Below are positions 4,738 to 57,500 of a DNA stretch of 64,000 nt, piece after piece (position 1 is the stretch's first letter; each line of letters opens with the position of its first letter). Location of the stretch: contig JBAXLI010000008.1 in NCBI GenBank assembly GCA_037134895.1, positions 17,294 to 81,293 of the forward strand, read 5' to 3'. The notes under the pieces were generated by a model. That model was given only the letters and a program-made list of their open reading frames with translations, had not been told where the DNA came from and ran no database searches. The stretch comes from Bacteroidota bacterium (GTDB lineage: Bacteria > Bacteroidota > Bacteroidia > Bacteroidales > FEN-979). A program made the translations under genes and the position numbers.

Positions 4738-5193
4738 ATGGATCGGGCAAGAAAAAGGGCCAGGTACAGCAGGCTTTATGATCAGCTCAGCGACCTTCTG
4801 ACTAAAACGCCCGATCCCCAGGCCAGGATGGCAACCATAGTTGCCGTGCTGCATAATAAAATGGAATATTTTTACTGGACTGGATTTTATCAGCTGGTCA
4901 AAGGGGAACTTACTGTGAAAACTTACCAGGGTCCCCTTGCCTGCCAGGTACTGAAAAGTCATACCGGCGTGTGCTGGGCCGGAATAGATACTAAAACAAC
5001 GGTGATTGTGCCCGATGTCCATAAATTCCCGGGCCATATCGCCTGCGATTCAGCCTCAGCTTCTGAAATTGTTGTTCCCTTGAAAAACCGCTCAGGCAGG
5101 ATCATCGGGGTGCTTGATGTCGACAGCAAATCGTTGAACTCATTTGATGAAGCTGATGCCGAATGGCTTGAAAAAATTGTCGCACTGGTTTGA
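4738..5193 (+). CDS. msrC: GAF-domain free methionine-(R)-sulfoxide reductase-like protein
   Basis: The 151-aa product resembles E. coli YebR/MsrC (..WTGFY.., ..GVCWAG.., ..FPGHIACDSASASEIVVPL.., ..IGVLDVDS..). Start chosen at the first ATG after the tnaA-like stop. Confidence 0.75.
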   Translation: MDRARKRARYSRLYDQLSDLLTKTPDPQARMATIVAVLHNKMEYFYWTGFYQLVKGELTVKTYQGPLACQVLKSHTGVCWAGIDTKTTVIVPDVHKFPGHIACDSASASEIVVPLKNRSGRIIGVLDVDSKSLNSFDEADAEWLEKIVALV

Positions 5194-5352
5194 TTGGGGA
5201 TTGGGGATTAGGGATTGGGGATTGGGGATTGGGGATTGGGGATTGGTTGTTGGTTCGCAGCAATGGCAAGGTGCTACGAAGCCATTCTTATTCGTAATTC
5301 GTAATTCGTAATTCGTAATTCGTCACTCGTCACTCGTCACTCGTCACTCGTA
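5192..5352. repeat. Heptamer array locus L1: class A x7 (+2 degenerate), core stem-loop, class B x9
   Basis: Class A runs 5192..5240 as GATTGGG x7 (one is GATTAGG), followed by GATTGGT and TGTTGGT. The core stem-loop is at 5254..5280. Class B runs 5290..5352 as ATTCGTA x4, ATTCGTC, ACTCGTC x3, ACTCGTA. The first unit overlaps the msrC-like stop TGA (5191..5193). The array ends 10 nt before the mntP ATG. Confidence 0.95.
5254..5280. other. Core stem-loop of the composite element (L1 copy)
   Basis: TTCGCAGCA, a 9-nt loop, then TGCTACGAA. This is a 9-bp stem with one C/A mismatch. It is the same stem sequence as at 18605..18643. Confidence 0.7.
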
Positions 5353-5362
5353 AATCACTAAC

Positions 5363-15088: not shown

Positions 15089-18000
15089 ATGAAGAAACCT
15101 GAAAAAATCAAAGAATTTTTTGCTACCAGCTGGGCAATCGACAACAGGGCGAGTATTTATGTACTTACGATAATTATTACCATGCTGGGAGTGATATCCT
15201 ACATGAATATACCGAAAGAGCAGTTCCCCGAAATTGTCATCCCAACCATCATAGTTAACACAGCCTATCCCGGGACCTCTCCCGAGGATATGGAGAACCT
15301 TGTGACCCGGCCGATCGAAAAACAGGTAAAATCCCTGCAGAACGTCAAGAAGATCAGTAGTAATTCCATTCAGGATTTTTCCTCCATCGTAGTCGAGTTC
15401 ACGACCGGCATTCCGGTACCTGAAGCCAAGCAGAGGGTCAGGGATGCAGTTGACAAGGCTAAATCAAGCCTTCCGAACAACCTGCCGAAGGACCCTGATA
15501 TCGCCGAGGTTGACATCTCCGAAATACCTATCATGAACATCAACCTCTCGGGTGATTACGACCTGCAAAGGCTGAAGAAATATGCCGAAGAAGCCCAGGA
15601 CAAGATTGAAACGCTGCCTGAAATAACAAGGGTGGATATCGTAGGGGCGCTTGACAGGGAGATCCAGGTCGATGTTGATATGTACAAGATGCAGGCGGCC
15701 AGCGTATCGTTCAGGGATATCCAGAATGCTATCGCCGCTGAAAACGTCACGGTGTCGGCAGGTAATATCACCAACTACGGGATGAAACGCACGCTCAGGG
15801 TCACCGGACAGTTCAAATCTCCGGCTGAGATCAATGACATCATCCTCAAGTCGTCCAGCGGAGCTACGGTATATATCAAAGATATCGCCGAAATAAAGGA
15901 TTCATATAAGGACCAGGAGAGTTTTGCCCGTTTTGAAGGCAAGAATGTGATCACACTGAATGTGATCAAGAAAAGCGGGGCAAACCTTCTGAATGCCTCC
16001 GACAAGATCAAGGATTTTATCAGTGACCTCAAAAAGAATTCTTTCCCTCCTGATCTTAAAGTCGAACTTACCGGTGAACAGTCAAGGTTTACACGCAGCA
16101 CACTGGAGGAGCTTAATAACACCATCATTATAGGCTTCCTGCTCGTTACTCTTGTTCTCATGTTTTTCATGGGTCTGAACAACGCATTCTTTGTTGCCAT
16201 GTCAGTTCCCTTATCGATGTTTGTGGCCTATCTTGTGATGCCCGGGCTGGGTTTTACCATGAATATGATCGTCATGTTCGGGTTCATTTTCGCCCTGGGT
16301 ATCATTGTCGATGATGCTATCGTTGTGATAGAAAACACCCACCGTATTCACCGGTTTATTCCGGATATAAAAACGGCGGCGAAACATGCTGCCGGGGAGG
16401 TCTTTCTGCCTATCCTGTCGGGAACGCTTACAACCCTGGCACCGTTCTTTCCACTGGTATTCTGGCCGGGCATTGTAGGGAAATTTATGCATTATCTGCC
16501 GGTTACCCTTATTTTGACACTGTTCGCCTCATTATTTGTGGCATATATCATCAACCCGGTATTTGCGGTCACTTTCATGAAACATGAATATGATGGCAAT
16601 GAATACAAGTTAAGGAAAAAGCCATTCCTTGTCAGCAGTATTATCCTGGGAGTCCTGGCTGCCTTGTTTTACCTGGCCGGTGTGTTTTTCATGGGGAACC
16701 TGCTTGCATTTGCCCTCATCCTCAACCTGGTTTACCGTTTGTGGATTAAAAATGCGATAATCGCGTTTCAGAGCAGATTATGGCCTGCCGTCCTGAATTT
16801 CTATGAAAAGCAGCTCCGGTTCTTTCTCAGGGGCCGTAATCCATATTACCTCTTCGCAGGCGTAATAGTGCTTTTTTTCTTCACGATTTATCTTTACGGC
16901 TTGTTCAAACCCCAGGTGTTGTTCTTCCCGAATAACAATCCGGCAACGATCAATATCTTTATAAAGATGCCGGTTGGGACAGACCAGAATGTAACCGACT
17001 CGGTAACCCGGATCGTCGAATCAAAGGTAGTTGCAACATTGGGCAAGGATAATCCCATTGTTGAGTCCATCATCGCCAATGTTGGATTCGGGGCAGGGGA
17101 AAGTTTCTTCGACCGTTCCATTTCGCCTGAAAAAGGCAAGGTCACTGTGGGCTTTGTTGAAAGCAAGGACCGCAAGGGAGTCAGGACTCTTGATTATATG
17201 GATCAGATCAGGAAGAATGTACAGAATATCCCCGGAGCCACGATTTCGGTTGAGAAGAACAAAATGGGACCACCCACCGGGAAGCCCATCAATATTGAGA
17301 TCACCAGTGATAACATCACTGACCTGATAAGTACTTCCAGGGATTTTCTCGGATACCTCGATTCACTCCAGATCCCCGGTATCGATAAGCTAAGGTCTGA
17401 TTTTGATGAAAGCAAGCCGGAAATCGTTCTTGAAGTTGACCGTATAAGGGCAAACCGTGAAGGCATCACTGTTGGGCAGATCGGAATGGAACTGCGGACT
17501 GCCATATACGGTTACGAAGCATCCAAGTACAAAGAGGATGAGGACGAATATCCCATCCAGGTAAGGTACTCCCAGGCTCAGCGTAAGAATATCAACAATG
17601 TAATGAATGCAAAGATCACCTATCGCGACATGAACAGCGGCCAGCTCAGGCAGATACCTATTTCGGCTGTAACCAAAGTCGATTACAAGGATACTTACGG
17701 AGGGATCAAACGAAAGAACCTCAAACGCGTCATTACATTATCTTCGGATGTTACCTCAGGACATACTGCCAATGAAGTTCTGGCAAACATCGGCGCTGCG
17801 CTTAAAACCTATAAACTTCCGAAAGGCGTTGAAGTGAATTTTACCGGTGAGCAGGAAGACCAGGCTGAAACTATGAAGTTCCTTATCAATGCAATGATCA
17901 TTGCACTCGGAATGATATTTTTCATCCTTATCACCCAGTTTGGCAGCCTCAGTAAAAGCCTCATCATCCTCAGCGAAGTTATTTTCAGCATCATTGGGGT

Positions 18001-18481
18001 TTTCATTGGAATGATTATTTTCAAGATGCCTTTTGTCATAACCATGACAGGCATCGGAATTGTAGCCCTGGGAGGTATTGTTGTCAGAAACGGGATCCTA
18101 ATCGTCGAGTTTGCCGATGTGTTAAAGGCCGAAGGGAAAACAACCCTCGAAGCCATCGTTGGCGCCGGCAAGACAAGGATTACCCCGGTTGCGCTTACAG
18201 CTACAGCAACCATGCTTGGGCTGGTACCACTCGCGGTGGGGTTCAACATCAATTTTGTTACCCTGTTCACCAAACTGAATCCTCATATATGGGTAGGGGG
18301 GGATAATGTGATGTTCTGGGGGCCTCTCTCATGGACAATTATCTTCGGCCTCAGCTTTGCAACCTTCCTGACCCTGATCTTTGTCCCGGCCCTGCTGCTG
18401 ATTGATGCAAAAGCCAAAGCCGGGTGGAGAAGGAAGCAGGAACTGAAACGGTACAGGAAACTACAGGCGAAGAAGGCTTGA
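15089..18481 (+). CDS. RND efflux transporter permease (AcrB/AcrD/AcrF family)
   Basis: Start trimmed to ATG 15089. 1130 aa with a 12-TM topology and two large periplasmic loops. Typical RND motifs are present (..ALGIIVDDAIVVIEN.., ..GIVVRNGILIVEF..). Confidence 0.9.
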   Translation: MKKPEKIKEFFATSWAIDNRASIYVLTIIITMLGVISYMNIPKEQFPEIVIPTIIVNTAYPGTSPEDMENLVTRPIEKQVKSLQNVKKISSNSIQDFSSIVVEFTTGIPVPEAKQRVRDAVDKAKSSLPNNLPKDPDIAEVDISEIPIMNINLSGDYDLQRLKKYAEEAQDKIETLPEITRVDIVGALDREIQVDVDMYKMQAASVSFRDIQNAIAAENVTVSAGNITNYGMKRTLRVTGQFKSPAEINDIILKSSSGATVYIKDIAEIKDSYKDQESFARFEGKNVITLNVIKKSGANLLNASDKIKDFISDLKKNSFPPDLKVELTGEQSRFTRSTLEELNNTIIIGFLLVTLVLMFFMGLNNAFFVAMSVPLSMFVAYLVMPGLGFTMNMIVMFGFIFALGIIVDDAIVVIENTHRIHRFIPDIKTAAKHAAGEVFLPILSGTLTTLAPFFPLVFWPGIVGKFMHYLPVTLILTLFASLFVAYIINPVFAVTFMKHEYDGNEYKLRKKPFLVSSIILGVLAALFYLAGVFFMGNLLAFALILNLVYRLWIKNAIIAFQSRLWPAVLNFYEKQLRFFLRGRNPYYLFAGVIVLFFFTIYLYGLFKPQVLFFPNNNPATINIFIKMPVGTDQNVTDSVTRIVESKVVATLGKDNPIVESIIANVGFGAGESFFDRSISPEKGKVTVGFVESKDRKGVRTLDYMDQIRKNVQNIPGATISVEKNKMGPPTGKPINIEITSDNITDLISTSRDFLGYLDSLQIPGIDKLRSDFDESKPEIVLEVDRIRANREGITVGQIGMELRTAIYGYEASKYKEDEDEYPIQVRYSQAQRKNINNVMNAKITYRDMNSGQLRQIPISAVTKVDYKDTYGGIKRKNLKRVITLSSDVTSGHTANEVLANIGAALKTYKLPKGVEVNFTGEQEDQAETMKFLINAMIIALGMIFFILITQFGSLSKSLIILSEVIFSIIGVFIGMIIFKMPFVITMTGIGIVALGGIVVRNGILIVEFADVLKAEGKTTLEAIVGAGKTRITPVALTATATMLGLVPLAVGFNINFVTLFTKLNPHIWVGGDNVMFWGPLSWTIIFGLSFATFLTLIFVPALLLIDAKAKAGWRRKQELKRYRKLQAKKA

Positions 18482-18682
18482 TGCGGGATGCAAGATGCAG
18501 GATGCAGGATGCGGGATGCAGGATGTGGGATGCAGGATGCGGGATGCAGGATGCGGGATGCAAGATGCAGGATGTACGGATTACGATGTACGAATTAGTA
18601 TGGGTTCGCAGCACCTTAGCAGCCCTGGTAAGTGTGCTGCGAAGCAACAACAAATCCCTAATCCCTAATCCCCAATCCCCAA
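18480..18682. repeat. Heptamer array locus L2: class C x13, degenerate class B' x4, core stem-loop, class A' x4
   Basis: Class C runs 18480..18570 as GATGCRR x13. Then 18571..18598 reads GATGTAC GGATTAC GATGTAC GAATTAG. The core lies within 18599..18650. Class A' runs 18651..18682 as ATCCCTA x2 then ATCCCCA x2. The first unit overlaps the RND stop TGA (18479..18481), and the last unit ends 1 nt before the TolC stop. Confidence 0.95.
18605..18643. other. Core stem-loop of the composite element (L2 copy)
   Basis: TTCGCAGCAC (18605..18614) pairs perfectly with GTGCTGCGAA (18634..18643). An inner CTTA/TAAG pairing extends the stem. Confidence 0.75.
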
Positions 18683-20071
18683 CTAAAACTGCTCAAGCAG
18701 CTTGTTCAGCCTTGTTTTCTGGCTCAGGACCATAAAAATAGACTGCATGTAGTTATTGTTCGCGGTGAGAAACTGTGAGTACCTCTGGTTGAGGTCAGTA
18801 CTTGAAGAAAGCCCCTGGCGGTACTTCGTCATAGTTTTAGTATAAATCTTCATGGCGATGTCAAATCCTTTCTTCTGGTTGAGGTAGATCGCATAGGCAT
18901 TACTGAAATCTTTCTTCGCAGTTTCAACCTGTAATTCAAGCCCCACCCTCATCTTCTCATCGGTAACCTTGGTTTTTTCAACGTTCAGTCTTGCCTGGTC
19001 AACCGCATATTTTCTGCTGCCGCTGCTCCAGATGGGAACTGTAAGCGAGATCCCCCAGCTTGATGTTTTATACCATGGATAGTGATAGTCGGTAAAATTC
19101 CATTCTTCTCTCTGGGCGGAGGTTGAGATGCCGATATAACCTCCAAGTGACGGCTGATAGGCAGTCTTCGAAAGCTTGTATTGCATGAGGACCAGGTAAT
19201 CGCTCTTTTTAAGTAAAGTGTAATCGATATTCCTGGTATAATCAAAAGCCTGATTCACTAAAACGTCGCGGTTTACCTGCGCGAGAAAATAATCCAGGTT
19301 GTTTGTAAGTATAAGCTCCTGCTCATCTTTCAAACCGATCACGAACTTCAGGTTTGCATAGGCGATATTACGGCTGCTCCTGACATCGGTAAGCTGGGCT
19401 TCCAGGTTGGATCGGTTCAGGTCGGCCTGGTCAACATCTATGTCTTCAATAAGCCCCTGGACCTGGGCTGCTTTTGCCTCTTCAACAAGCCTGCTTACCA
19501 CTACATATGTGGAGTCAAGGATCTTGATCGCCTCATCGGTCACAAGTAACTGGTAATATGCTGTGGCAACGATATCGCGGATGTCAACCTTGTCTTTCAG
19601 ATTCTTTTGCTTGGCGGTTTCAAGGTAAGCCTTGGCAGTCTGCAATCCAACAAGGTACTGTCCGCTGTAGATCAGCTGGGTCAGCTGCAGGCCTGCGTTG
19701 ATATTATATTTCATGCCAAACTGCATGTCGAGATAATCAGGAGCCTGTGCATACTTCACCGGGTCCATCGCTTTCAGGAAGTTAGGTAACACCGAAGTGG
19801 GAAGGCTCAGGTAATCAACATATGATGCACTTCCGTTGATCTGTGGAAGCCCGATTGCGGTGTTCTGCTTGACCATTTTGCCAGCGATTGTAACATCAGT
19901 TGCCGAATTCTTGAGGTCGTAATTATTCTCAAAAGCAAATTCCTGGGCCTGCTGCAGAGAGAATGAAACCACTGTTTTTTGCTTCACCCGGCTCTGGGCA
20001 GCCAGGTATGTAGTATGACAAGTCAGCAACACCAATACGATGCACCAAAGTTTATTGAAAGTGAAGTACAT
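18683..20071 (-). CDS. TolC-family outer-membrane efflux protein
   Basis: 462 aa with a signal peptide and the duplicated alpha-helical/beta-barrel repeat typical of OEP/TolC (..YLETAKQ.., ..LNRSNLEAQL..). It is convergent with the RND pump. Confidence 0.8.
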   Translation of the reverse strand: MYFTFNKLWCIVLVLLTCHTTYLAAQSRVKQKTVVSFSLQQAQEFAFENNYDLKNSATDVTIAGKMVKQNTAIGLPQINGSASYVDYLSLPTSVLPNFLKAMDPVKYAQAPDYLDMQFGMKYNINAGLQLTQLIYSGQYLVGLQTAKAYLETAKQKNLKDKVDIRDIVATAYYQLLVTDEAIKILDSTYVVVSRLVEEAKAAQVQGLIEDIDVDQADLNRSNLEAQLTDVRSSRNIAYANLKFVIGLKDEQELILTNNLDYFLAQVNRDVLVNQAFDYTRNIDYTLLKKSDYLVLMQYKLSKTAYQPSLGGYIGISTSAQREEWNFTDYHYPWYKTSSWGISLTVPIWSSGSRKYAVDQARLNVEKTKVTDEKMRVGLELQVETAKKDFSNAYAIYLNQKKGFDIAMKIYTKTMTKYRQGLSSSTDLNQRYSQFLTANNNYMQSIFMVLSQKTRLNKLLEQF

Positions 20072-22709: not shown

Positions 22710-25094
22710 TTATGCGACTTCGATCCCTGTTTCGCCGGGGATGAACCTTCCAATCACTGAAGAAAAGTTAAAACCTTCTGCCGCAAGGGCTGCAACTGCC
22801 TCTTCAGCCTGCTCAGCGGGCAATGCAACCAGAAGTCCGCCTGAAGTCTGTGCATCGGCAAGAAGTATCTTCACCATTTCTGGCACTGAAGGTCTGCAAT
22901 GAAGAATGCTCCCTGCAAACTCGAGGTTGCTGATGGTCCCGCCGGGGATCATCCCTGCAACTGCATACTCCCATGCCGAACTCAGCAAAGGCAATTTTTC
23001 CCATTCCAGCAACGCCCTGAGCTCGCCTGCCGAAAGCATTTCTTTAAGATGTCCGAGCAAACCAAAGCCCGTCACATCGGTGCACGCATGTATATCATAG
23101 TTCATCAGAAGTTCGGCCGGCCGTTTGTTAAGAGCCGACATCACTTCAATCGCCTCCTTTGCCGATTCGGGGCTTGCAAACCCCCTTTTTACAGCAGTGC
23201 TTACAATCCCCGTCCCAATAGGCTTTGTAAGAAGCAATGCATCCCCGGCCCTGGGTGTGGAATTTCTCCAGATCCGGTCGGGATGCACTTCCCCGCTTAC
23301 AACGAAGCCGAATTTCGGTTCTTCGTCTTCAATACTATGACCGCCTAAGATCGGAATCCCTGCTTCAGCCGCTTTATCCGATGCTCCCCTGAGGATCTCC
23401 TGGAGCACTTCAAACGGCAGCCGTTTTTCGGGGAAGGCAACAATACTCAGTGCAAAAAGGGGCCGCCCTCCCATAGCCCAGATATCGCTTAGCGCATTCG
23501 CTGCAGCAATAGCCCCATAATAATAAGGATCGTCAACCACCGGGGGAATGAAATCGACTGTTTGTACCAGGGCGGTGTCCTCGCTTAAACGGTAAACGGC
23601 AGCATCATCAGAAGTCTCGGTCCCCACCAGTATATTTTTCCCGGCCGGGCGGGGAATGGTCTTCAATATCTTTTCAAGAGCCTGTGGCCTGATCTTGCAT
23701 GCACAGCCCAGTGAATGCGTGTATTCGGTTAATTTAATCGGTTTTAAACTGACTGCGGATGAGGGAGGGTTTTCATCACCTCCTGCCTGTTCCCCGCCTG
23801 GCGTGAGGCCTGGCTTTTCAGTCTTTTCAAACAGATGCAGGAGTTTCCCCGGGAGGGTCCTTCCGCTGATAATCTCAACCGCAAAGTCGATTTCTTCTTC
23901 AGTGCTCATCCTCCCTGTCGAAAACCTTATCGTACCCAGCGCATAATCACGGGGGACCTGCATTGCCAGTAAAACCTGTGAGATCGTTTCCAGCCCGGCA
24001 TGGCAGGCTGCCCCGGCCGAAGCTGCAAGTCCTCTCCAGTCATTCAGAAGGGCTGAAGCATCCTTTCCCCTGAACCCGAGGCTGAGCGTATTCGGAAGCC
24101 GTTTTTCGGGATGGCCGTTCAGCCTTGCATCGGGGAATGCCTGGAGAATACCATCGTGGAGGCGATCCCTCAGTGTTTGCAGGGGATTGGGGGTTGGGGA
24201 TTGGGGGTTGGGGATTGGGGGTTGGGGATTGGGGATCCGGTCTTCATTAGTAACTCGTAACTCTTCATTCGTAATTCGTAATTCGTAATTCGTAACTCGT
24301 AACTCGTCATTCGTCATTCGTAACTCGTAACTCCTAATTATCTCCGCCGATTTCCCCATGCCTGCAATGCCCATGATATTTTCAGTGCCTGCCCTGAGGT
24401 TCTGCTCATGCCCCGCCCCGTGAAGTATTTTACTGAGCTTTATCCCCCTGCGGCAATAAAGGGCTCCGACCCCTTTGGGTGCATAGAATTTGTGAGCCGC
24501 AACCGACAACAGGTCGGCGTTCATGGCAACCACATCTACGGGGATCTTCCCAACCGACTGTGCAGCGTCACAATGGAATACGATCCCGTGCTCTCTTGAG
24601 ATCCTGCCTATGTCTTCAACCGGCTGTATCGTTCCCACCTCGTTATTCGCATGCATGATGCTGGCAAGAATGGTATCGGGCCTGATTGCTTTTCTGAAAT
24701 CATCGGGATTTATCATCCCCTTTTCATCGACCGGAAGATAGGTGATCTCAAAACCCATGCCCGACAAAAACCGGCAAACCTCTGTTACTGCCGGGTGTTC
24801 AACCATGGATGTGATGATATGCCTGCCTTTCCCGGCATAGGCAAATGCATAGCCCTTAAGAGCAAGATTGTTCGATTCGGTTCCTCCTCCTGTAAGAATG
24901 ATCTCGTCGGGCCTTGCATTCAGTGCAAGTGCCAGCTCCCGGCGGCCAGCTTCGATTGCTTTCCGCGCTAGAATTCCGAATTCATGGGAACTTGAAGGAT
25001 TGCCGAAGAGTTCTCCCAAAAACGGTCTCATCTCCTCCGCAACCCGCGGGTCCAGGGGGGTGGTGGCATTATAATCAAGATATACTGCTTTCAT
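22710..25094 (-). CDS. selD: Fusion protein: NifS/IscS-like cysteine desulfurase (N-terminal) + selenophosphate synthetase SelD (C-terminal), interrupted in frame by a heptamer-array segment
   Basis: 794 aa. The N-terminal domain (MKAVYLDYNATTP...HKFYAPKGVG...SAGAACH) is class-V aminotransferase/NifS-like. The C-terminal domain (..LGCACKIRPQALEKIL.., ..GGHSIED.., ..DVTGFGLLGHL.., ..AQTSGGLL..) is SelD, with Cys rather than Sec at the active site. Residues [51 protein letters not shown] are encoded by repeat locus L3. Confidence 0.85.
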   Translation of the reverse strand: MKAVYLDYNATTPLDPRVAEEMRPFLGELFGNPSSSHEFGILARKAIEAGRRELALALNARPDEIILTGGGTESNNLALKGYAFAYAGKGRHIITSMVEHPAVTEVCRFLSGMGFEITYLPVDEKGMINPDDFRKAIRPDTILASIMHANNEVGTIQPVEDIGRISREHGIVFHCDAAQSVGKIPVDVVAMNADLLSVAAHKFYAPKGVGALYCRRGIKLSKILHGAGHEQNLRAGTENIMGIAGMGKSAEIIRSYELRMTNDELRVTNYELRITNEELRVTNEDRIPNPQPPIPNPQSPTPNPLQTLRDRLHDGILQAFPDARLNGHPEKRLPNTLSLGFRGKDASALLNDWRGLAASAGAACHAGLETISQVLLAMQVPRDYALGTIRFSTGRMSTEEEIDFAVEIISGRTLPGKLLHLFEKTEKPGLTPGGEQAGGDENPPSSAVSLKPIKLTEYTHSLGCACKIRPQALEKILKTIPRPAGKNILVGTETSDDAAVYRLSEDTALVQTVDFIPPVVDDPYYYGAIAAANALSDIWAMGGRPLFALSIVAFPEKRLPFEVLQEILRGASDKAAEAGIPILGGHSIEDEEPKFGFVVSGEVHPDRIWRNSTPRAGDALLLTKPIGTGIVSTAVKRGFASPESAKEAIEVMSALNKRPAELLMNYDIHACTDVTGFGLLGHLKEMLSAGELRALLEWEKLPLLSSAWEYAVAGMIPGGTISNLEFAGSILHCRPSVPEMVKILLADAQTSGGLLVALPAEQAEEAVAALAAEGFNFSSVIGRFIPGETGIEVA
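24182..24338. repeat. Heptamer array locus L3 (inside nifS-selD): class A x8, a 3-nt joint, class B x14
   Basis: Positions 24182..24237 alternate GGGGATT/GGGGGTT x8. Positions 24241..24338 hold 14 in-phase units (TCGTAAC/TCGTAAT/TCGTCAT/TCTTCAT variants). The region is read on the minus strand as part of the CDS. Confidence 0.95.
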
Positions 25095-28552: not shown

Positions 28553-30454
28553 ATGAGCGATTATATTCATCATGAATGCGGGATAGCCCTCGTAAGACTT
28601 TTAAAGCCACTGGAATTCTACCTGGCTAAATACGGAACTGCTTTTTATGGCCTGAACAAGCTGCATCTCCTGATGGAAAAGCAACATAACCGCGGGCAGG
28701 ATGGGGCAGGGGTTGCAGCAATTAAATTCGACCTTGAACCCGGCAACCGGTTTATTCACGCGCTTCGTTCCAATGCTGAGTCTCCCATCCAGGATATTTT
28801 CGGTAAGATCAATAAGAAACTAAAAGATATAGAAGAACGTCATCCTAAGAACCTGCTGGATATTCAATGGCTGAAGCAGAACATCGATTTCATGGGCGAG
28901 TTGTACCTGGGCCACCTCAGGTACGGGACTTTTGGCAAGAACTCAACCCTCAGCCTGCATCCTTTTGTTCGCGAGAATAACTGGCTTACTAAAAATCTGG
29001 TCGTTGCAGGGAATTTCAACCTGACCAATGTTGACGAACTTTTTAACAAGCTCATCGACCTTGGTCAATACCCTATTGAAACTTCTGATACGATTACCAT
29101 TCTTGAGAAGATCGGTCATTTTCTTGATGAGGAAAATGAAGAACTTTACTGGAAATTCAAGAACCTTGGATTCAAGAAGCGAGAGATCACAGTTGAAATC
29201 GCAAGGAACCTGAATGTACAGAAGATCCTGAGAAGATCAGCAAAATACTGGGACGGAGGTTATGTGATTGCCGGGATGTTTGGACACGGAGATGCTTTCG
29301 TGATGAGAGACCCTTCAGGAATACGTCCGGCTTTCTATTTCAGGAATGATGAAATTGTTGTTGTGACTTCCGAAAGGCCGGTGATCCAGACCGTGATGAA
29401 CGTATCTATTGATTCAGTGCATGAACTTAAGCCGGGACATGCCCTGATTGTAAAGCAGGATGGCAGGGTCAGCGAGAAAGAATTTCATAAGCCGCTTGAG
29501 AAGAAATCCTGCTCTTTCGAGCGAATTTATTTTTCGAGGGGTACCGACAGGGATATCTACCAGGAAAGGAAGCAACTTGGAAGATTCCTTTCTCCGGGTA
29601 TTTTAAAAGCAATTGACTACGACCTTGACAATACAGTGTTTTCGTATATACCCAATACGGCAGTTGATGCTTATTACGGACTGATAGAGGAGATCGGCAA
29701 TTATTGCAATACAATTAAGGCCGATCGTATACTAAAGGCCGGGAAAAACCTTGACAGGGAGAAAATAGAAAAGATACTGAAGTTTCAGCCAAGGGCTGAA
29801 AAAGTCGCGGTCAAGGATTTGAAGCTCAGGACCTTCATCACGCAGGATTCCCAGAGAAACGACCTTGCCGCACATGTATATGATATAACCTACGGAAGTA
29901 TCAGGCCGGGCCTCGACAACCTGGTGATTCTGGATGATTCCATCGTTAGGGGAACTACCCTCAAGCAGAGCATTATAAGGATTCTAAGCCGGCTCGGACC
30001 AAGGAAAATCGTGATTGCTTCATCAGCTCCCCAGATACGTTTCCCCGACTGTTACGGCATCGATATGGCAAAGGTTGCAGATTTTATTGCATTTAAAGCT
30101 GCTATTGAGCTTCTCAGGGAAACACATCAGGAAGGAATCATTAATTCGGTTTACAAGAAATCAAAAGCCCAGGAAAAGCTTCAAAAGGAAAAAATTGTAA
30201 ACTACGTTAAGGAGATCTATCAGCCCTTCACTCCTGAACAAATTGCCGCCAAAGTTGCTGCACTGGTCACTCCTGAGAACTGTGGAGCAAGAGTAGAGAT
30301 TGTTTATCAGACTATCGAAGATCTGCATAAAGCCTGTCCAGGGCATACTGGAGACTGGTATTTCACAGGCAATTACCCCACTCCCGGAGGGAACAAGGTG
30401 TCGAACAAGGCCTTTATAAACTATATCGAGGGGAAAAACGTAAGAGCGTATTAA
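28553..30454 (+). CDS. purF: Amidophosphoribosyltransferase (long, Bacteroidota-type class II glutamine amidotransferase)
   Basis: 633 aa. It has an N-terminal nucleophile Cys after Met-propeptide-like residues (MSDYIHHECGIA), GHLRYGT, and the PRPP-binding motif LVILDDSIVRGTT. Confidence 0.8.
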   Translation: MSDYIHHECGIALVRLLKPLEFYLAKYGTAFYGLNKLHLLMEKQHNRGQDGAGVAAIKFDLEPGNRFIHALRSNAESPIQDIFGKINKKLKDIEERHPKNLLDIQWLKQNIDFMGELYLGHLRYGTFGKNSTLSLHPFVRENNWLTKNLVVAGNFNLTNVDELFNKLIDLGQYPIETSDTITILEKIGHFLDEENEELYWKFKNLGFKKREITVEIARNLNVQKILRRSAKYWDGGYVIAGMFGHGDAFVMRDPSGIRPAFYFRNDEIVVVTSERPVIQTVMNVSIDSVHELKPGHALIVKQDGRVSEKEFHKPLEKKSCSFERIYFSRGTDRDIYQERKQLGRFLSPGILKAIDYDLDNTVFSYIPNTAVDAYYGLIEEIGNYCNTIKADRILKAGKNLDREKIEKILKFQPRAEKVAVKDLKLRTFITQDSQRNDLAAHVYDITYGSIRPGLDNLVILDDSIVRGTTLKQSIIRILSRLGPRKIVIASSAPQIRFPDCYGIDMAKVADFIAFKAAIELLRETHQEGIINSVYKKSKAQEKLQKEKIVNYVKEIYQPFTPEQIAAKVAALVTPENCGARVEIVYQTIEDLHKACPGHTGDWYFTGNYPTPGGNKVSNKAFINYIEGKNVRAY

Positions 30455-30457
30455 AAG

Positions 30458-30518
30458 TTACGAATTACGAGTTACGAGTTTCGAATTATGGTTATTACAC
30501 TCGTCACTTGTCACTCAA
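30458..30518. repeat. Heptamer array locus L4: class B' x4-5, spacer, class B x3 (imperfect hairpin)
   Basis: TTACGAA TTACGAG TTACGAG TTTCGAA (30458..30485), then CACTCGT CACTTGT CACTCAA (30498..30518). It starts 4 nt after the purF stop. The last unit contains the HIT stop (30515..30517). Confidence 0.85.
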
Positions 30519-30907
30519 ATCGCTTCCGATATCTTCTTCGCAATAGCAGCCAGTTCCTCGTTTGTGAACTTCAGTTTTGGTTTGCGAAAATCCATATCAT
30601 ACATCGTCTTCAAAGGGATAAGATGGATATGGGTATGGGGCACTTCCAGGCCAATAACGGTGATACCTATCCGCTGACAGGGTACAACCTTTTCAATGGC
30701 CTTTCCAACTTTTTTTGCAAAATTCCATAAGCCCGCATGGAGATCGTTTTCCATATCAAAAATGTAATTGATCTCTTTTTTAGGAATTATAAGGGTGTGT
30801 CCTTCCTGAAGTGGATTGATATCCAGAAATGCGAGGTAATCATCATCTTCAGTGACTTTATGACAAGGGATCTCTCCGTTTACAATACGAGTGAAAATAC
30901 TGGCCAT
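30515..30907 (-). CDS. HIT-family (histidine triad) protein
   Basis: Start trimmed to ATG 30907 (MASIFTRIVNGEIPCHKV..). The histidine triad is VPHTHIHLIP. 130 aa. Confidence 0.85.
   Translation of the reverse strand: MASIFTRIVNGEIPCHKVTEDDDYLAFLDINPLQEGHTLIIPKKEINYIFDMENDLHAGLWNFAKKVGKAIEKVVPCQRIGITVIGLEVPHTHIHLIPLKTMYDMDFRKPKLKFTNEELAAIAKKISEAI

Positions 30908-41792: not shown

Positions 41793-41797
<5 letters not shown>
41357..41797 (+). CDS. Hypothetical lipoprotein (Cys-rich C-terminal half)
   Basis: 146 aa with a lipobox (FIVISCSK) and a C-terminal CxC/CxxC pattern (ITCNCPKCKSKY). Its stop codon TAG lies inside the first unit of repeat locus L5. Confidence 0.5.
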
Positions 41798-43518
<1,721 letters not shown>

Positions 43519-43610: not shown

Positions 43611-44366
43611 ATGCCATTGATATTAGGACGAAACAGGCCAAACGGAGCAATCGGTGTCTGGCAAATTACCGAAGATGAAACTGCGCTCAGCACCCTTGCC
43701 TCTGCCGTTGAAGAGGACGAGAAAGTGGTCAGGACCTTCAAAAATGAATCGAGGCGGAAACAATGGTATGCCTGCCGGGCTTTGCTCAGGCAGATGCTTT
43801 CTTTTGACGAGGTGAAAGTCGATTATGACATGCATGGCAGACCATCTCTCAGGGGATTTAAGGGAGATATTTCATTTTCCCATACACAGGATTATGCAGC
43901 AGTAATATTGAATAAGGTGGGACGTGCCGGGATTGACATAGAAAAAATCAATCCCAGGATACACCGGGTTGCAGATAGGTTCCTTCAGGATGAAGAACTG
44001 GAGCACGTATCACGTATCGCGAGAAACGAGGAACGAGGAACGTGTCACCAATCACCAACAAACAGCAACCAACAACCAACAACCAATCCCCAACCCCCAA
44101 TCCCCAACCCCCAACCCCCAATCCCCAACCCCCAATCCCCAACCACTGAACTCCTATATTTATACTGGTGTGCAAAGGAAGCGTTATATAAATTTTATGG
44201 TAATCCCTCGGTTGACCTGAAAAATGATATCTACATCATTGCATTTGATTATTTTTGCAATCCAAATGCCGCCTTCACTTCACGGGTAAAATCATCGGAA
44301 GGCATCAGAGAACATGAACTCTTATCGGTCAGGATAGGGGATCATATGCTTGTTTATACCTTATAA
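43611..44366 (+). CDS. Sfp-type 4'-phosphopantetheinyl transferase carrying an in-frame 42-codon heptamer-array insertion
   Basis: Start trimmed to ATG 43611; the upstream part of the track ORF is only open frame through repeat locus L6. PPTase motifs are present (..[10 protein letters not shown].., ..GIDIEKI.., ..[13 protein letters not shown]). Residues [42 protein letters not shown] are encoded by repeat locus L7. Confidence 0.75.
44018..44143. repeat. Heptamer array locus L7 (inside the PPTase gene): 18 in-phase units grading from class-B'-like through CACCAAC/AACCAAC to class A'
   Basis: Counting 7-mers from 44018 gives CGCGAGA, AACGAGG x2, AACGTGT, CACCAAT, CACCAAC, AAACAGC, AACCAAC x2, AACCAAT, then CCCCAAC/CCCCAAT x8. 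That is 126 nt, or exactly 42 codons. Confidence 0.9.
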
Positions 44367-49018: not shown

Positions 49019-49762
49019 ATGAATCACTTGCAAACACTTACAAAAGATGCCAGGGCCGGCAGAAAAAAATTCGCCGTCCTGATCGACCCGGATAAATCGA
49101 CACCTGCTTCGATCAGGAGCCTGGCGGGGATTGCGGTAAAGGCTGGCGTCGACTATTTCTTCTTCGGTGGAAGCCTGCTTACAAGCAATGAAGGTGGTGA
49201 ACAGATAAGGATGTTGAAGCAAGAATCCGATATTCCTGTTATTTTATTCCCGGGCAGCAGTTTGCAGGTGTATCCCGATGCCGATGGGATCCTGCTTCTT
49301 TCGCTGATATCGGGAAGGAATCCCGAAATGCTTATCGGAAAACATGTTGAATCTGCAGCCCTGCTCAAAGCCAGCAAACTTGAGATAATCCCTACCGCAT
49401 ACATGCTTGTCGACGGTGGAAAACCTACTTCTGTTTCATATATCAGCAATACTCTTCCAATACCTGCAGACAAGCCTGATATTGCTGCTTGCACTGCTCT
49501 CGCGGGAGAGATGCTTGGCCTGAAACTTATCTATATGGATGCAGGTTCGGGAGCTTTGAACCCGGTATCTTCAGAGATGATCTCGAAAGTGAAGCAGGAA
49601 ACCTCATTACCACTCATTATAGGCGGAGGCATCTCTGATATCCGCAAGGCGAAAAACGCATTGGAAGCCGGAGCTGACATCATTGTTACCGGAAACGCGA
49701 TTGAGAAGAACCCGGGACTGATGTCCGATATCGGAAGTCTGATGACGGGATACAGGACATAG
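49019..49762 (+). CDS. Geranylgeranylglyceryl/heptaprenylglyceryl phosphate synthase family protein (PcrB/GGGPS-like)
   Basis: Start trimmed to ATG 49019 (MNHLQTLTKD..). Motifs ..AVLIDPDK.., ..IYMDAGSGA.., ..LIIGGGI.., ..ADIIVTGNA.. match the TIM-barrel GGGPS family. The stop TAG overlaps the first unit of repeat locus L8. Confidence 0.7.
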   Translation: MNHLQTLTKDARAGRKKFAVLIDPDKSTPASIRSLAGIAVKAGVDYFFFGGSLLTSNEGGEQIRMLKQESDIPVILFPGSSLQVYPDADGILLLSLISGRNPEMLIGKHVESAALLKASKLEIIPTAYMLVDGGKPTSVSYISNTLPIPADKPDIAACTALAGEMLGLKLIYMDAGSGALNPVSSEMISKVKQETSLPLIIGGGISDIRKAKNALEAGADIIVTGNAIEKNPGLMSDIGSLMTGYRT

Positions 49763-49906
49763 GATGCGGGATGCAGGATGCATGATGATTGATTCTACTT
49801 TATCTTGCATCTTGCATCTTGCATCTTGCATCTTGTACCTTGCATCTTGCATCTTGCATCTTGTACCTTGCATCTTGCATCCCGCATCTTACATCCCTTA
49901 CCTTTA
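49761..49906. repeat. Heptamer array locus L8: class C x3-4, 13-nt spacer, class C' x15 (asymmetric hairpin)
   Basis: AGGATGC GGGATGC AGGATGC ATGATGA (49761..49788), then ATCTTGC/ATCTTGT/ACCTTGC variants in unbroken phase at 49802..49906. It overlaps the GGGPS-like stop TAG (49760..49762) and contains the elbB stop (49904..49906). Confidence 0.95.
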
Positions 49907-52382: not shown

Positions 52383-53371
52383 AAATGACTGAATTGAACA
52401 GGCCGGCGAATTTTGCACTGATTGGAGCTGCAGGTTATATTGCACCCCGGCATATGAAAGCTATAAAGGAGACTGGAAACAGGCTGATTTGTGCACTGGA
52501 TCCATATGACGGAGTCGGGATCATTGACAGTTATTTCCCGGATGCTGACTTTTTTATTGAGCCGGAACGTTTTGACCGCCACCTCGACAAGCTCAGGAGG
52601 ATGGGCATAGCCAGGAAAAGACAGGAAGACAACAGGGTTGATTATGTGAGCATCTGCTCTCCCAACTATATGCACGATTCGCATATCAGGCTGGCCCTTC
52701 GCAATGATGCCAATGCCATTTGCGAAAAACCGATTGTGCTTAATCCCTGGAATCTTGATGCCTTGAAAGAGATCGAGAAGGAGACAGGGAAAAAAGTGTA
52801 TACCGTGCTCCAGCTCAGATTGCATCCGGTGATCATCGCCTTGCGTGAGAAGATAAGGAAAGGCCCAAAGAACAAGGTATACAACCTTGACCTTACTTAT
52901 ATCACCTCGAGGGGCAACTGGTATTATCGTTCCTGGAAAGGTGATGTTTCCAAATCGGGTGGCATCGCAACCAATATAGGAATTCACTTTTTTGATATGC
53001 TTACCTGGATCTTCGGAGATGTAAAAGCCAACAAGGTCCATGTGATGAACGGGAACAAGGCAGGAGGGTATCTTGAACTCGAAAAAGCCAGGATACGCTG
53101 GTTTCTCAGCCTTGATTATAATGACGTTCCCGATGATGTGAAGAAAGCCGGAAAGCGTACTTACCGTTTGCTGACCCTTGACGGGGATGCCGTTGAGTTC
53201 AGCGAAGGATTCACCGACCTGCATACTGTTACATACAGGGAAATTTTAAGCGGTCAGGGGTTCGGGCTGAGTGATGCCAGACCCAGTATAAATATTGCAT
53301 TCCAGATCAGGAACGAGACCCCGGTGGGGCTTAAGGGGGATTATCATCCGTTTCTGAAAGGTGGGGATTAG
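52379..53371 (+). CDS. Gfo/Idh/MocA-family NAD-dependent sugar oxidoreductase (WbpB-like)
   Basis: 330 aa with an N-terminal Rossmann motif ([14 protein letters not shown]) and ..EKPIVLN.. There is an ATGA overlap with the upstream gene. The stop TAG lies inside repeat locus L9. Confidence 0.8.
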
Positions 53372-53478
53372 GGATTGGGGATTAGGGATTAGGGATTGGG
53401 GATTAGGGATTAGGGATTAGGGATTAGGGATTAGGGATTAGTAATACCTTAAACCCCAACCCCCAACCCCCTACCCCT
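53364..53478. repeat. Heptamer array locus L9: class A x11, 10-nt spacer, class A'-like x4
   Basis: GGGATTA/GGGATTG x11 (53364..53440), then AAACCCC AACCCCC AACCCCC TACCCCT (53451..53478). It contains the wbpB-like stop TAG (53369..53371) and lies 26 nt upstream of the galE ATG. Confidence 0.95.
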
Positions 53479-53503
53479 AAAACGTTTTACAAAAACTAAA
53501 CTT

Positions 53504-56593: not shown

Positions 56594-56676
56594 TTACGAG
56601 TGACGAATGACGAGTGACGATTTCTGAATTCGTAACTCGTAACTCGTAATTCGTAATTCGTAATTCGTAACTTACT
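56594..56676. repeat. Heptamer array locus L10: class B' x4, 6-nt spacer, class B x6-7 (hairpin)
   Basis: TTACGAG TGACGAA TGACGAG TGACGAT (56594..56621), then ATTCGTA ACTCGTA ACTCGTA ATTCGTA x3 ACTTACT (56628..56676). The last degenerate unit contains the BI-1 stop (56672..56674). Confidence 0.95.
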
Positions 56677-57425: not shown

Positions 57426-57500
57426 TTTAGGGTTTGGGGGTTAGGGTTTAGGGATAAGCAATATCACCCTAATCCCTAATCCCCAATCCCTAATCCCTGT
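57426..57500. repeat. Heptamer array locus L11: class A x4, spacer, class A' x5 (hairpin)
   Basis: TTTAGGG TTTGGGG GTTAGGG TTTAGGG (57426..57453), then ACCCTAA TCCCTAA TCCCCAA TCCCTAA TCCCTGT (57466..57500). It lies between the BI-1 start and the folE stop (57504..57506). Confidence 0.95.

Follow-up and report, generated by a model that had tools for sequence, protein, structure and literature searches.

A stem-loop between heptamer arrays in the AcrB/TolC spacer of a Bacteroidota genome: candidate remnant of a longer palindromic repeat

Introduction

The window analysed in this study is a 64,000-nt (64 kb) stretch from an uncultured Bacteroidota bacterium of freshwater (contig JBAXLI010000008.1, positions 17,294 to 81,293), and the locus in question, L2 (18482-18682), is the entire spacer between convergent AcrB-like and TolC-like genes. 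L2 consists of arrays of 7-nt units around a unique stem-loop, here called the core, and a second core of similar sequence stands at L1 (5192-5353), between a GAF-domain gene and an MntP gene, both on the plus strand. An earlier note had proposed that the hairpin does not result from simple slippage and is a defined element, for example a recognition structure of the REP (repetitive extragenic palindromic)/RAYT or IS200/IS605 type, or a structured small RNA. The question raised by this locus is what the core is and how it came to stand in two spacers. On balance, we consider it probable that the hairpin is what remains at the base of an imperfect, roughly 135-nt palindrome, which would be part of a small, decaying dispersed repeat.

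Layout and common descent of the two cores

Tandem Repeats Finder (TRF) and direct reading bore out the order of parts described in the earlier note, which is A array, TTGTTG linker, stem-loop and B array at both loci, with an additional C' tail at L2 (Table 1). The plus-strand layout of L1 equals the minus-strand layout of L2: A array, linker, hairpin, tail, B array. On the minus strand, L2 reads four GGGGATT-type units, TGTTGTTGC, TTCGCAGCAC-A-CTTA-CCAGGGCTGC-TAAG-GTGCTGCGAA and the tail CCCATACTA, followed by 17 units in an unbroken 7-nt register that pass from ATTCGTA through CATCGTA and ATCCGTA to CATCCTG/CATCCCG; the last of the 17 holds the AcrB stop codon. The B'-type units bridge the B and C unit types without a register break. 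The TTGTTG linker was present as described, and the register print-out refined it to a degenerate heptamer unit that stays in register with the array. The TRF calls at L2 were 18480-18574 (period 7, 13.6 copies of GATGCAG), 18570-18597 (degenerate, B'-like) and 18653-18679 (AATCCCT, 3.9 copies).

The stem is common to both loci, as the same note had described: L2 has a perfect 10-bp stem with an inner CTTA/TAAG pairing, L1 has one mismatch, and AAGG forms the loop end in both. The L2 hairpin folds at -26 kcal/mol on the plus strand (z -4.7) and the L1 hairpin at -14.7 kcal/mol on the minus strand (z -3.4). The two cores share the stem, a flanking TTGTTGS unit on one side, SCCATWCTWATTCGTA on the other side, and their polarity between A and B arrays. 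Alignment showed that the flanks of L1 and L2 are homologous past the hairpin rather than unrelated, and the shared unique parts are about 10% divergent by direct reading of the alignment. The pattern TTCGCAGCA N8-30 TGCTRCGAA had just two matches in the window, L1 and L2, with 0 expected from 100 shuffles.

The same loci were collected from a dozen or more public samples by looking up the flanking proteins. As counted in these short-read assemblies, the C array of L2 had about 4, 10, 13-14 or 18-19 units and its A array carried a single-base variant, while the A array of L1 ranged from 3 to 8 units (3-4 in the other assemblies, 8 in the window) and the L1 B array also varied in length. The short cores, linkers and tails were identical throughout, the short core being unchanged in at least 12 assemblies. 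Head-to-tail units of one period with copy-number polymorphism were thus found in the flanking arrays only and not in the core, and the comparison shows the arrays behaving as ordinary slippage-prone simple sequence repeats (SSRs) around an invariant short core.

Because stem, flanking units and polarity are the same at both loci, and because the core is fixed while array lengths differ between assemblies, the comparison supports a defined, non-slippage element of common descent, as the earlier note had held. A chance resemblance of the two cores, or their production by array slippage, is effectively refuted: both cores do stand within arrays whose units are shared genome-wide, but the core has no 7-nt periodicity, its pattern was expected 0 times in shuffles, and the homology reaches the unique tails.

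Many contigs stopped within the L1 and L2 arrays. Loci of this type break short-read assemblies and are therefore under-represented in collections of metagenome-assembled genomes (MAGs).

Long form of the core

Unlike the other samples, sample ERZ27300082 contained a long form of the core, in a co-occurring strain that is 99.8% identical. The complete long form is known from one copy, on a TolC contig (L004) that is 99.85% identical to the window across 11.4 kb. After the TolC stop codon this contig has 1.5 A units and TTGTTGC, followed by a complete palindrome of about 135 nt, TTCGCAACAC ACTTACCCGGGCTGCTACGG TCTAAGTGA-(46-nt loop)-TCACTTAG CCCTGAGGCAGCCCTGGCAAGG TGCTGTGAA, then B-like units (CACGAAC, and CACGTGT twice) and the 3' end of a histidine-kinase-like gene. 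A second copy was found on an AcrB contig of the same sample (L086). This contig has the usual C array, B' units and TATGGG tail as in the window, so that the long form appears to be allelic at L2, and beyond the tail it continues with TTCGCAGCAC CTTACCCGGGCTGCCTCAGGGCTAAGTGAGCGAAC...GAGCTCACTTAGAC (to GGTGAGCTCACTTAGAC) up to the contig end, where the copy stops. The long form is a three-segment hairpin with folding energies of -42 and -59 kcal/mol on the two strands (z -3.3 and -4.3).

The MAFFT alignment showed that the L2 core equals the left arm of the long form (CACACTTACC.GGGCTGCTA.GG) joined directly to its last 9-10 nt, with the deletion junction at a TA/TA microhomology by direct reading. 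The L1 core equals the first 9 nt of the long form followed by TGGCAAGGTGCT.CGAA from its right arm. L2 thus retains the outer stem and part of the left arm, and L1 no more than the outer stem and 8 nt belonging to the right arm. Since only the long form holds both pieces together, the window hairpins at L1 and L2 appear to be independent internal-deletion stumps of one ancestral palindrome of about 135 nt. Such an origin, which the earlier note did not anticipate, would account for the shared AAGG loop end and for the inner CTTA/TAAG pairing. The population would then hold three deletion stages of one element, an example of the decay of a palindromic repeat.

Between the long copies, 3 of 49 stem positions and 10 of 46 positions of the apical loop are different; they are distinct copies or old alleles, and their stems have been preserved better than the loop. 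L1, L2 and the long form all fold better on the B'-to-A' strand, where mismatches turn into G.U pairs. The reading of the long form as an inverton (an invertible promoter) was rejected, since the spacer measures just 46 nt and both long copies are colinear, not inverted.

Position 11390-11624 of L004 is a structural variant of window position 18482-18700, in which the histidine-kinase-like 3' end follows TolC instead of AcrB. L004 departs from the window some 15 nt ahead of the TolC stop codon, beginning with two synonymous changes.

Search for an RNA, a protein or a regulatory signal over the core

The folding results bear on the proposal that the core, and especially its long form, encodes a small non-coding RNA with a defined structure. 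Shuffled controls fold much less stably than the long form, the stems of the long form are more conserved than its loop, and the same strand is favoured in all three copies. In the outer stem, only three one-sided changes (one G.U and two mismatches) were found among the 3-4 sequences compared; no pair was altered on both sides, so the compensatory changes that the earlier note had suggested looking for were not seen. A search of Rfam 15 returned 0 matches at the gathering threshold on the window, and scans of L2 and the long form at E<=10 returned only noise (best score 16.5 bits, cut-off 76). Neither a promoter nor a terminator signal was seen for the core. The predominant alleles have lost most of the molecule without replacement, and the core was missing from all related species examined. 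An RNA gene is accordingly a very improbable explanation, and that part of the earlier proposal was not supported.

No tRNA, tmRNA or protein-coding signal was found over the core, and a tRNA or tmRNA fragment was rejected. A yybP-ykoY manganese riboswitch upstream of MntP at L1 was also rejected, there being no Rfam match.

An open reading frame (ORF) on the plus strand, 18424-18735 (103 aa), is open through the whole L2 composite including the core, and its frame is the one translated in the intragenic composites described below. A protein-database search with its 43-aa core-spanning segment found no homologues, so the ORF is probably not a gene. The same search of the translation showed that core-bearing composites are not concealed within called proteins in the searched frame.

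Orthologous spacers in related species

Syntenic loci were obtained from five related species, in which TolC is 81-87% identical and MntP 75-81% identical, with a DNA identity of about 70-78%. The L2 spacer of these relatives held an 8-mer array (CCAGTAAC, 9.5 copies), was reduced to abutting genes, or held a canonical bidirectional terminator (AAAAAAAGAGAGGGCGGCTGTTGGAGCCGCCCTCTCTTTTTTT). The L1 spacer held CGTGTCA (3.6 copies), or CAGTCNG units with an inverted copy and a T-run, or GTACATG (6 copies). The core was absent from both orthologous spacers in all five relatives, including by low-stringency BLAST.

It would follow from this absence that the core is recent and that it reached L1 and L2 after these species split, having been copied to at least two sites. 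A recent arrival combined with a difference of about 10% between L1 and L2 points to the copying of a pre-existing element rather than to independent origins. The spacer contents further suggest that repeat units at conserved positions turn over fast, lineage by lineage.

Is the core a 3'-end element?

Alternatively, the hairpin may be primarily functional, as a terminator or mRNA-stabilising stem-loop for the convergent AcrAB and TolC operons that selection maintains; together with the C-rich, G-poor arrays it might form a zone of Rho-dependent termination. The spacer that L2 fills is convergent (3'-3'), its stem is stable and its short core invariant, and the orthologous L2 spacer of one relative is a textbook bidirectional intrinsic terminator. 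As in such a terminator, a stable stem-loop stands precisely between the convergent genes at L2; in one ortholog of the L1 spacer there is a hairpin and a T-run. Downstream of the hairpin, L2 is C-rich and G-poor in both directions (C17/G1 of 39 nt; C52/G15 of 123 nt). Most other window spacers hold heptamer-array hairpins of -25 to -64 kcal/mol after gene ends.

Unlike a Rho-independent bidirectional terminator, the core has no flanking A- or U-tracts, and its stem sequence is reused at a second, co-directional spacer. No T-run or U-tract followed the stem on either strand, so that of an intrinsic terminator the stem-loop is present and the U-tract is missing; a terminator-pattern scan of the first 20 kb was at chance level and did not report the core. 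The better-folding strand of L1 is antisense to both neighbouring genes, and one stem sequence at two unrelated loci favours copying over independent selection. The coreless composites L3 and L7 lie within genes, where termination would harm. A primary role at 3' ends is considered unlikely, though less so than the other alternatives.

Search for a partner enzyme and for further copies

A DNA enzyme might also recognise the hairpin as its target, such as a REP/REPIN-RAYT or IS200/IS605-type system or another transposase or nuclease; its gene would lie elsewhere in the genome. A stem conserved in sequence without covariation is what a sequence-specific protein site would be expected to show, and the long form is laid out like a REPIN, its two inverted arms (about 39 nt) enclosing a 46-nt spacer. 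The deletion derivatives keep both termini, and the core has newly appeared at two loci or more. Neither the 64 kb window nor a 10 kb left extension, however, contained a RAYT, TnpA/B, Y1 or other transposase or nuclease gene. The window genes are housekeeping genes (RND efflux, selenium utilisation, methionine cycle, TonB receptor, sigma factors), and the extension contained neither heptamer arrays nor the core, which leaves two core loci in about 74 kb of this genome. REP-like abundance was thus not seen. Inverted doublets of short REPs and a conserved GTAG-type 5' motif were absent by direct reading, and the homology of L1 and L2 continues outside the hairpin, so that the copied unit is larger than a REP. 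Together these results make a partner enzyme a decidedly unlikely explanation.

Outside the window, a scan of a genome collection for TTCGCARCA N6-36 AAGGTGCTRYGAA gave 11 matches against about 17 expected (596 Gb, uniform composition), none of them from this species. A metagenome scan for GATTKGTTGTTGSTTCGCA gave 29 matches, none with the 3' arm or the array context, and three scans of viral collections gave one phage coding sequence and chance matches only. BLAST of the long form against plasmids and phages gave no match. The pattern search suggested earlier therefore found the two window loci, and in public collections it stayed at chance level without a hit in this organism. The exact L2 sequence was not recovered by the scans, which places this locus outside the collections, and the scans consequently set no bound on the genome-wide copy number. 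In everything that could be examined, two loci, no covariation and no partner gene were found, an outcome that the earlier note had itself named as speaking against its proposals.

A hairpin, GGCTTCGCAGCAATTTGCTGTAAGGTGCTACGAAGCCAT, was seen at 5823-5853 of L020 and 4604-4634 of L022 (Omnitrophota and Planctomycetia MAGs), in an apparent rplP-rpmC spacer. It resembles the L1 core well beyond the pattern bases: in both, AT follows the 5' arm, GCCAT follows the 3' arm and an A stands at the mismatch. This likeness is probably a coincidence among chance-level matches. A Bacteroidetes MAG from Lac Pavin (40% GC; L021, 5229-5398) had four tandem 42-nt hairpin units with an AT-rich loop, whose stems are TTCGCAGCA/TGCTGCGAA or a near variant; this organism is unrelated to the window by BLAST.

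A probable decaying dispersed palindrome

The reading that we favour, a stump of a dispersed palindromic repeat, brings these results together as follows. The repeat appears to have a fixed layout of A-type heptamer array, TTGTTGS unit, palindrome, short tail and B-type heptamer array. Once the species had split, the composite would have been duplicated from one spacer to another. The simplest route would be ectopic recombination or gene conversion starting in the homologous A and B arrays, the other being some form of transposition. Taken at face value, the structural variant in L004 shows that recombination occurs at the L2 locus. The apex of the palindrome would then have been lost by slipped-strand deletion; long palindromes are unstable in bacteria, and apex loss of this kind is their usual fate. 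The residual stem-loop would be transcribed at the 3' ends of the neighbouring operons, where it may act as a 3'-end barrier or stabiliser in the place at which relatives have a canonical terminator, and any such function would be secondary and is hypothetical. The C-rich, G-poor RNA downstream of the hairpin could, speculatively, suit Rho loading.

Several points weigh against this reading. With just two loci and one or two long variants, neither a dispersed family nor the way in which it spreads can be demonstrated. Contig L004 stops 235 nt past TolC and joins a different downstream gene, and this junction could reflect a genuine rearrangement, another copy in the genome or a chimera assembled through the repeat. 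A target-site duplication was not visible, the flanks (TTGTTGS against SCCATWCT/CAAATCAC) not being direct repeats, and no transposase for the element is known, none having been found among the window genes. The conservation of stems above the loop, the invariance of the short core and the better folding of one strand fit a selected structure as well. The array lengths come from short-read assemblies, in which tandem repeats may be miscounted.

A bolder proposal would give the palindrome a part in seeding or guiding the growth of phased 7-nt arrays, so that the composite would be an actively propagating, undescribed intergenic element, and would have the arrays homogenised genome-wide into species-specific units by a dedicated copying or templating mechanism. 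It would thereby explain the differing units in the spacers of sister species and the presence of composites in both spacers and genes. Taken together, the two parts of this proposal are highly doubtful. If many cores or a partner enzyme existed, the composite would link the expansion of simple sequence repeats with small mobile palindromes and would allow the replacement of canonical terminators to be studied in a natural setting.

Comparison with known repeats

By class, the core is best read as a small palindromic repeat resembling a miniature inverted-repeat transposable element (MITE) or a REPIN, nested in heptamer arrays. It was filed as a member of no family, because it did not show, in the sequence covered, the features that define them (copy number, partner gene, target-site duplication, U-tract).

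Like REPIN/BIME-type repeats (Bertels and Rainey 2011, PMC3116915), the core is a non-coding intergenic imperfect long hairpin with two inverted arms and a short spacer, its copies lie at gene 3' ends, and sequence rather than pairing alone is conserved between copies. Unlike them, it has not shown a high copy number (two loci in about 74 kb) or a RAYT gene in the window, its arms are not themselves short palindromic REPs, the GTAG-type motif is missing, and it sits with fixed polarity between two different, non-complementary heptamer arrays. The core differs from IS200/IS605 elements and their non-autonomous derivatives in being a single symmetric palindrome instead of two distinct end hairpins, in having no coding interior, and in being flanked left and right by heptamer units rather than by a shared target motif.

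Terminal inverted repeats as in MITEs were found in the long form, the arms being TTCGCARCAC ACTTACC.GGGCTGC... / ...GCAGCCC.GG.AAGGTGCTG.GAA. With MITEs and other small palindromic repeats (Correia/NEMIS, ERIC, RUP, Rickettsia palindromic elements), the core has in common a length of about 135 nt, the terminal inverted repeats and internally deleted derivatives that retain both ends. Rickettsia palindromic elements are tolerated in frame inside genes, as are related composites here. The differences are that the core lacks a target-site duplication, that no parent insertion sequence was seen in the window, that it has 2-4 copies, that the in-frame gene copies are without the palindrome, and that the copied unit appears to include the flanking heptamer arrays.

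Long 7-nt SSRs have been described among cyanobacterial short tandemly repeated repetitive sequences (STRR), including GGGGATT of Nostoc/Anabaena, and as GGGAATC of Xanthomonas (Rehm et al. 2015, PMC4692102). The GGGGATT arrays of Anabaena form G-quadruplexes in vitro, and the Xanthomonas arrays lie near upstream gene ends, at times as inverted pairs (PMC4692102). TAACTGA arrays are recorded in Beggiatoaceae, Cyanobacteria and five Bacteroidetes (MacGregor 2015, PMC4679880). The arrays that flank the core resemble those in the sections of these accounts cited here: they have a period of 7, are mostly intergenic, lie near the 3' end of the upstream gene and are length-polymorphic among close relatives, and their A unit GGGGATT is identical to the G-quadruplex-forming unit of Anabaena (PMC4692102). 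The same sections cover arrays only and not a unique conserved palindrome between two array types. A unique palindrome standing with fixed polarity between two phased, non-complementary heptamer arrays is to that extent a variant not found described.

The small dispersed repeats (SDRs) of Nostoc punctiforme treated by Elhai et al. in 2008 are reportedly 21-27 nt long, with hundreds of copies, and are said to be very small mobile repeats nested in repeated or hairpin-forming intergenic sequence of a heptamer-rich genome. The element here differs in its full length of about 135 nt and in having 2-4 documented copies.

Other heptamer loci and coordinates

Heptamer arrays were found at 11 loci of the window, all composed of units from three families (A, GGGGATT; B, ATTCGTA; C, GATGCAG) or of the complements of these units. 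Nine (9/11) were in spacers, mostly just past gene 3' ends, and 7 of these 9 pair an array with an inverted copy of its own unit type. Five of the 7 inverted-pair loci formed hairpins below their shuffled controls (z -3.1 to -9.1, down to -64 kcal/mol), and the loci 53360-53482 and 30452-30520 folded no better than shuffles. No U-tract was found at the seven inverted-pair spacers, most of which lie directly after gene 3' ends. L1 and L2 are exceptional in that their arrays are non-complementary and their sole stem-loop is the unique core.

The two intragenic composites, L3 and L7, were free of the hairpin and had the same A-to-B order, in agreement with the earlier note. They stand in frame in two enzyme genes, and their translation includes ...YELRITNEELRVTNE... 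In one strain the NifS-like/SelD fusion was 14 aa shorter (42 nt, 6 units fewer), and relatives had different heptamers at the same point of this gene, with proteins of 758-800 aa. The polarity, A on the left and B on the right, was the same in all five orientable composites (L1, L2, L3, L7 and L004). The lineage is thus one in which phased 7-nt arrays saturate the intergenic spacers and even two enzyme genes. The coordinates of all features are shown in Table 1.

Table 1. Features of L1, L2 and the other repeat loci (positions in the window unless a contig is named)
Feature	Coordinates	Strand	Details
AcrB-like RND transporter gene	15089..18481	+	1130 aa; left neighbour of L2; Pfam ACR_tran
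L2 C array	18477..18574	+	GATGCAG/GATGCGG x13-14, one 7-nt register; TRF and register print-out
L2 transitional B'-type units	18575..18595	+	x3: TACGGAT, TACGATG, TACGAAT (reverse: ATCCGTA, CATCGTA, ATTCGTA); direct reading
L2 unique tail	18596..18604	.	TAGTATGGG (reverse CCCATACTA), 9 nt; homologous to L1 GCCATTCTT; direct reading and alignment
L2 core hairpin	18605..18643	.	39 nt; 10-bp outer stem TTCGCAGCAC/GTGCTGCGAA, bulged A, inner 4-bp CTTA/TAAG, 10-nt loop
L2 linker	18644..18652	.	GCAACAACA (reverse TGTTGTTGC); degenerate heptamer unit in A-array register; register print-out
L2 A' array	18653..18682	+	AATCCCT/AATCCCC x4 (reverse GGGGATT); TRF and direct reading; adjoins TolC stop codon 18683-18685
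TolC/OEP outer-membrane factor gene	18683..20071	-	462 aa; convergent right neighbour of L2; Pfam OEP; NCBI name TolC family
L1 A array	5192..5246	+	GATTGGG x8; TRF and direct reading
L1 linker unit	5247..5253	+	TTGTTGG; direct reading
L1 core hairpin	5254..5280	.	TTCGCAGCA-ATGGCAAGG-TGCTACGAA, 27 nt; 9-bp stem, one C.A mismatch (minus strand: G.U)
L1 unique tail	5281..5289	+	GCCATTCTT; direct reading and alignment
L1 B array	5290..5353	+	ATTCGTA x5 then ACTCGTC x4; TRF and register print-out; ends 9 nt before MntP start codon (5363)
L3 coreless A-to-B composite	24182..24339	+	In frame within NifS-like/SelD fusion gene (22710..25094, minus strand)
L7 coreless composite	44004..44144	-	A, GGTTGTT linker units, B-like; in frame within 4'-phosphopantetheinyl transferase gene (ends 44366)
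Spacers with array and inverted copy	30458-30516, 41793-41876, 43380-43514, 49740-49895, 53364-53477, 56596-56672, 57426-57498		
Spacers of sister species	L072 11411-11487; L074 11393-11446; L077 1-56; L078 9920-10000; L080 9935-9980		Differing units or terminator

The stop codons at 5191-5193, 18479-18481 and 18683-18685 lie inside or touch the first repeat unit, so that the arrays occupy the spacers fully, with no unique sequence between gene end and array. The TGA of the GAF-domain gene (5191-5193) is made of the T at 5191 and the first GA of the L1 A array, and the TGA of AcrB (18479-18481) lies inside the first unit of the C array. The A unit GGGGATT/GGGATTA occurs at 5192-5246, 18653-18682, 24182-24236, 41793-41825, 53364-53441 and 57426-57453, and its TTTAGGG and TTAGGG variants mimic eukaryotic telomere repeats.

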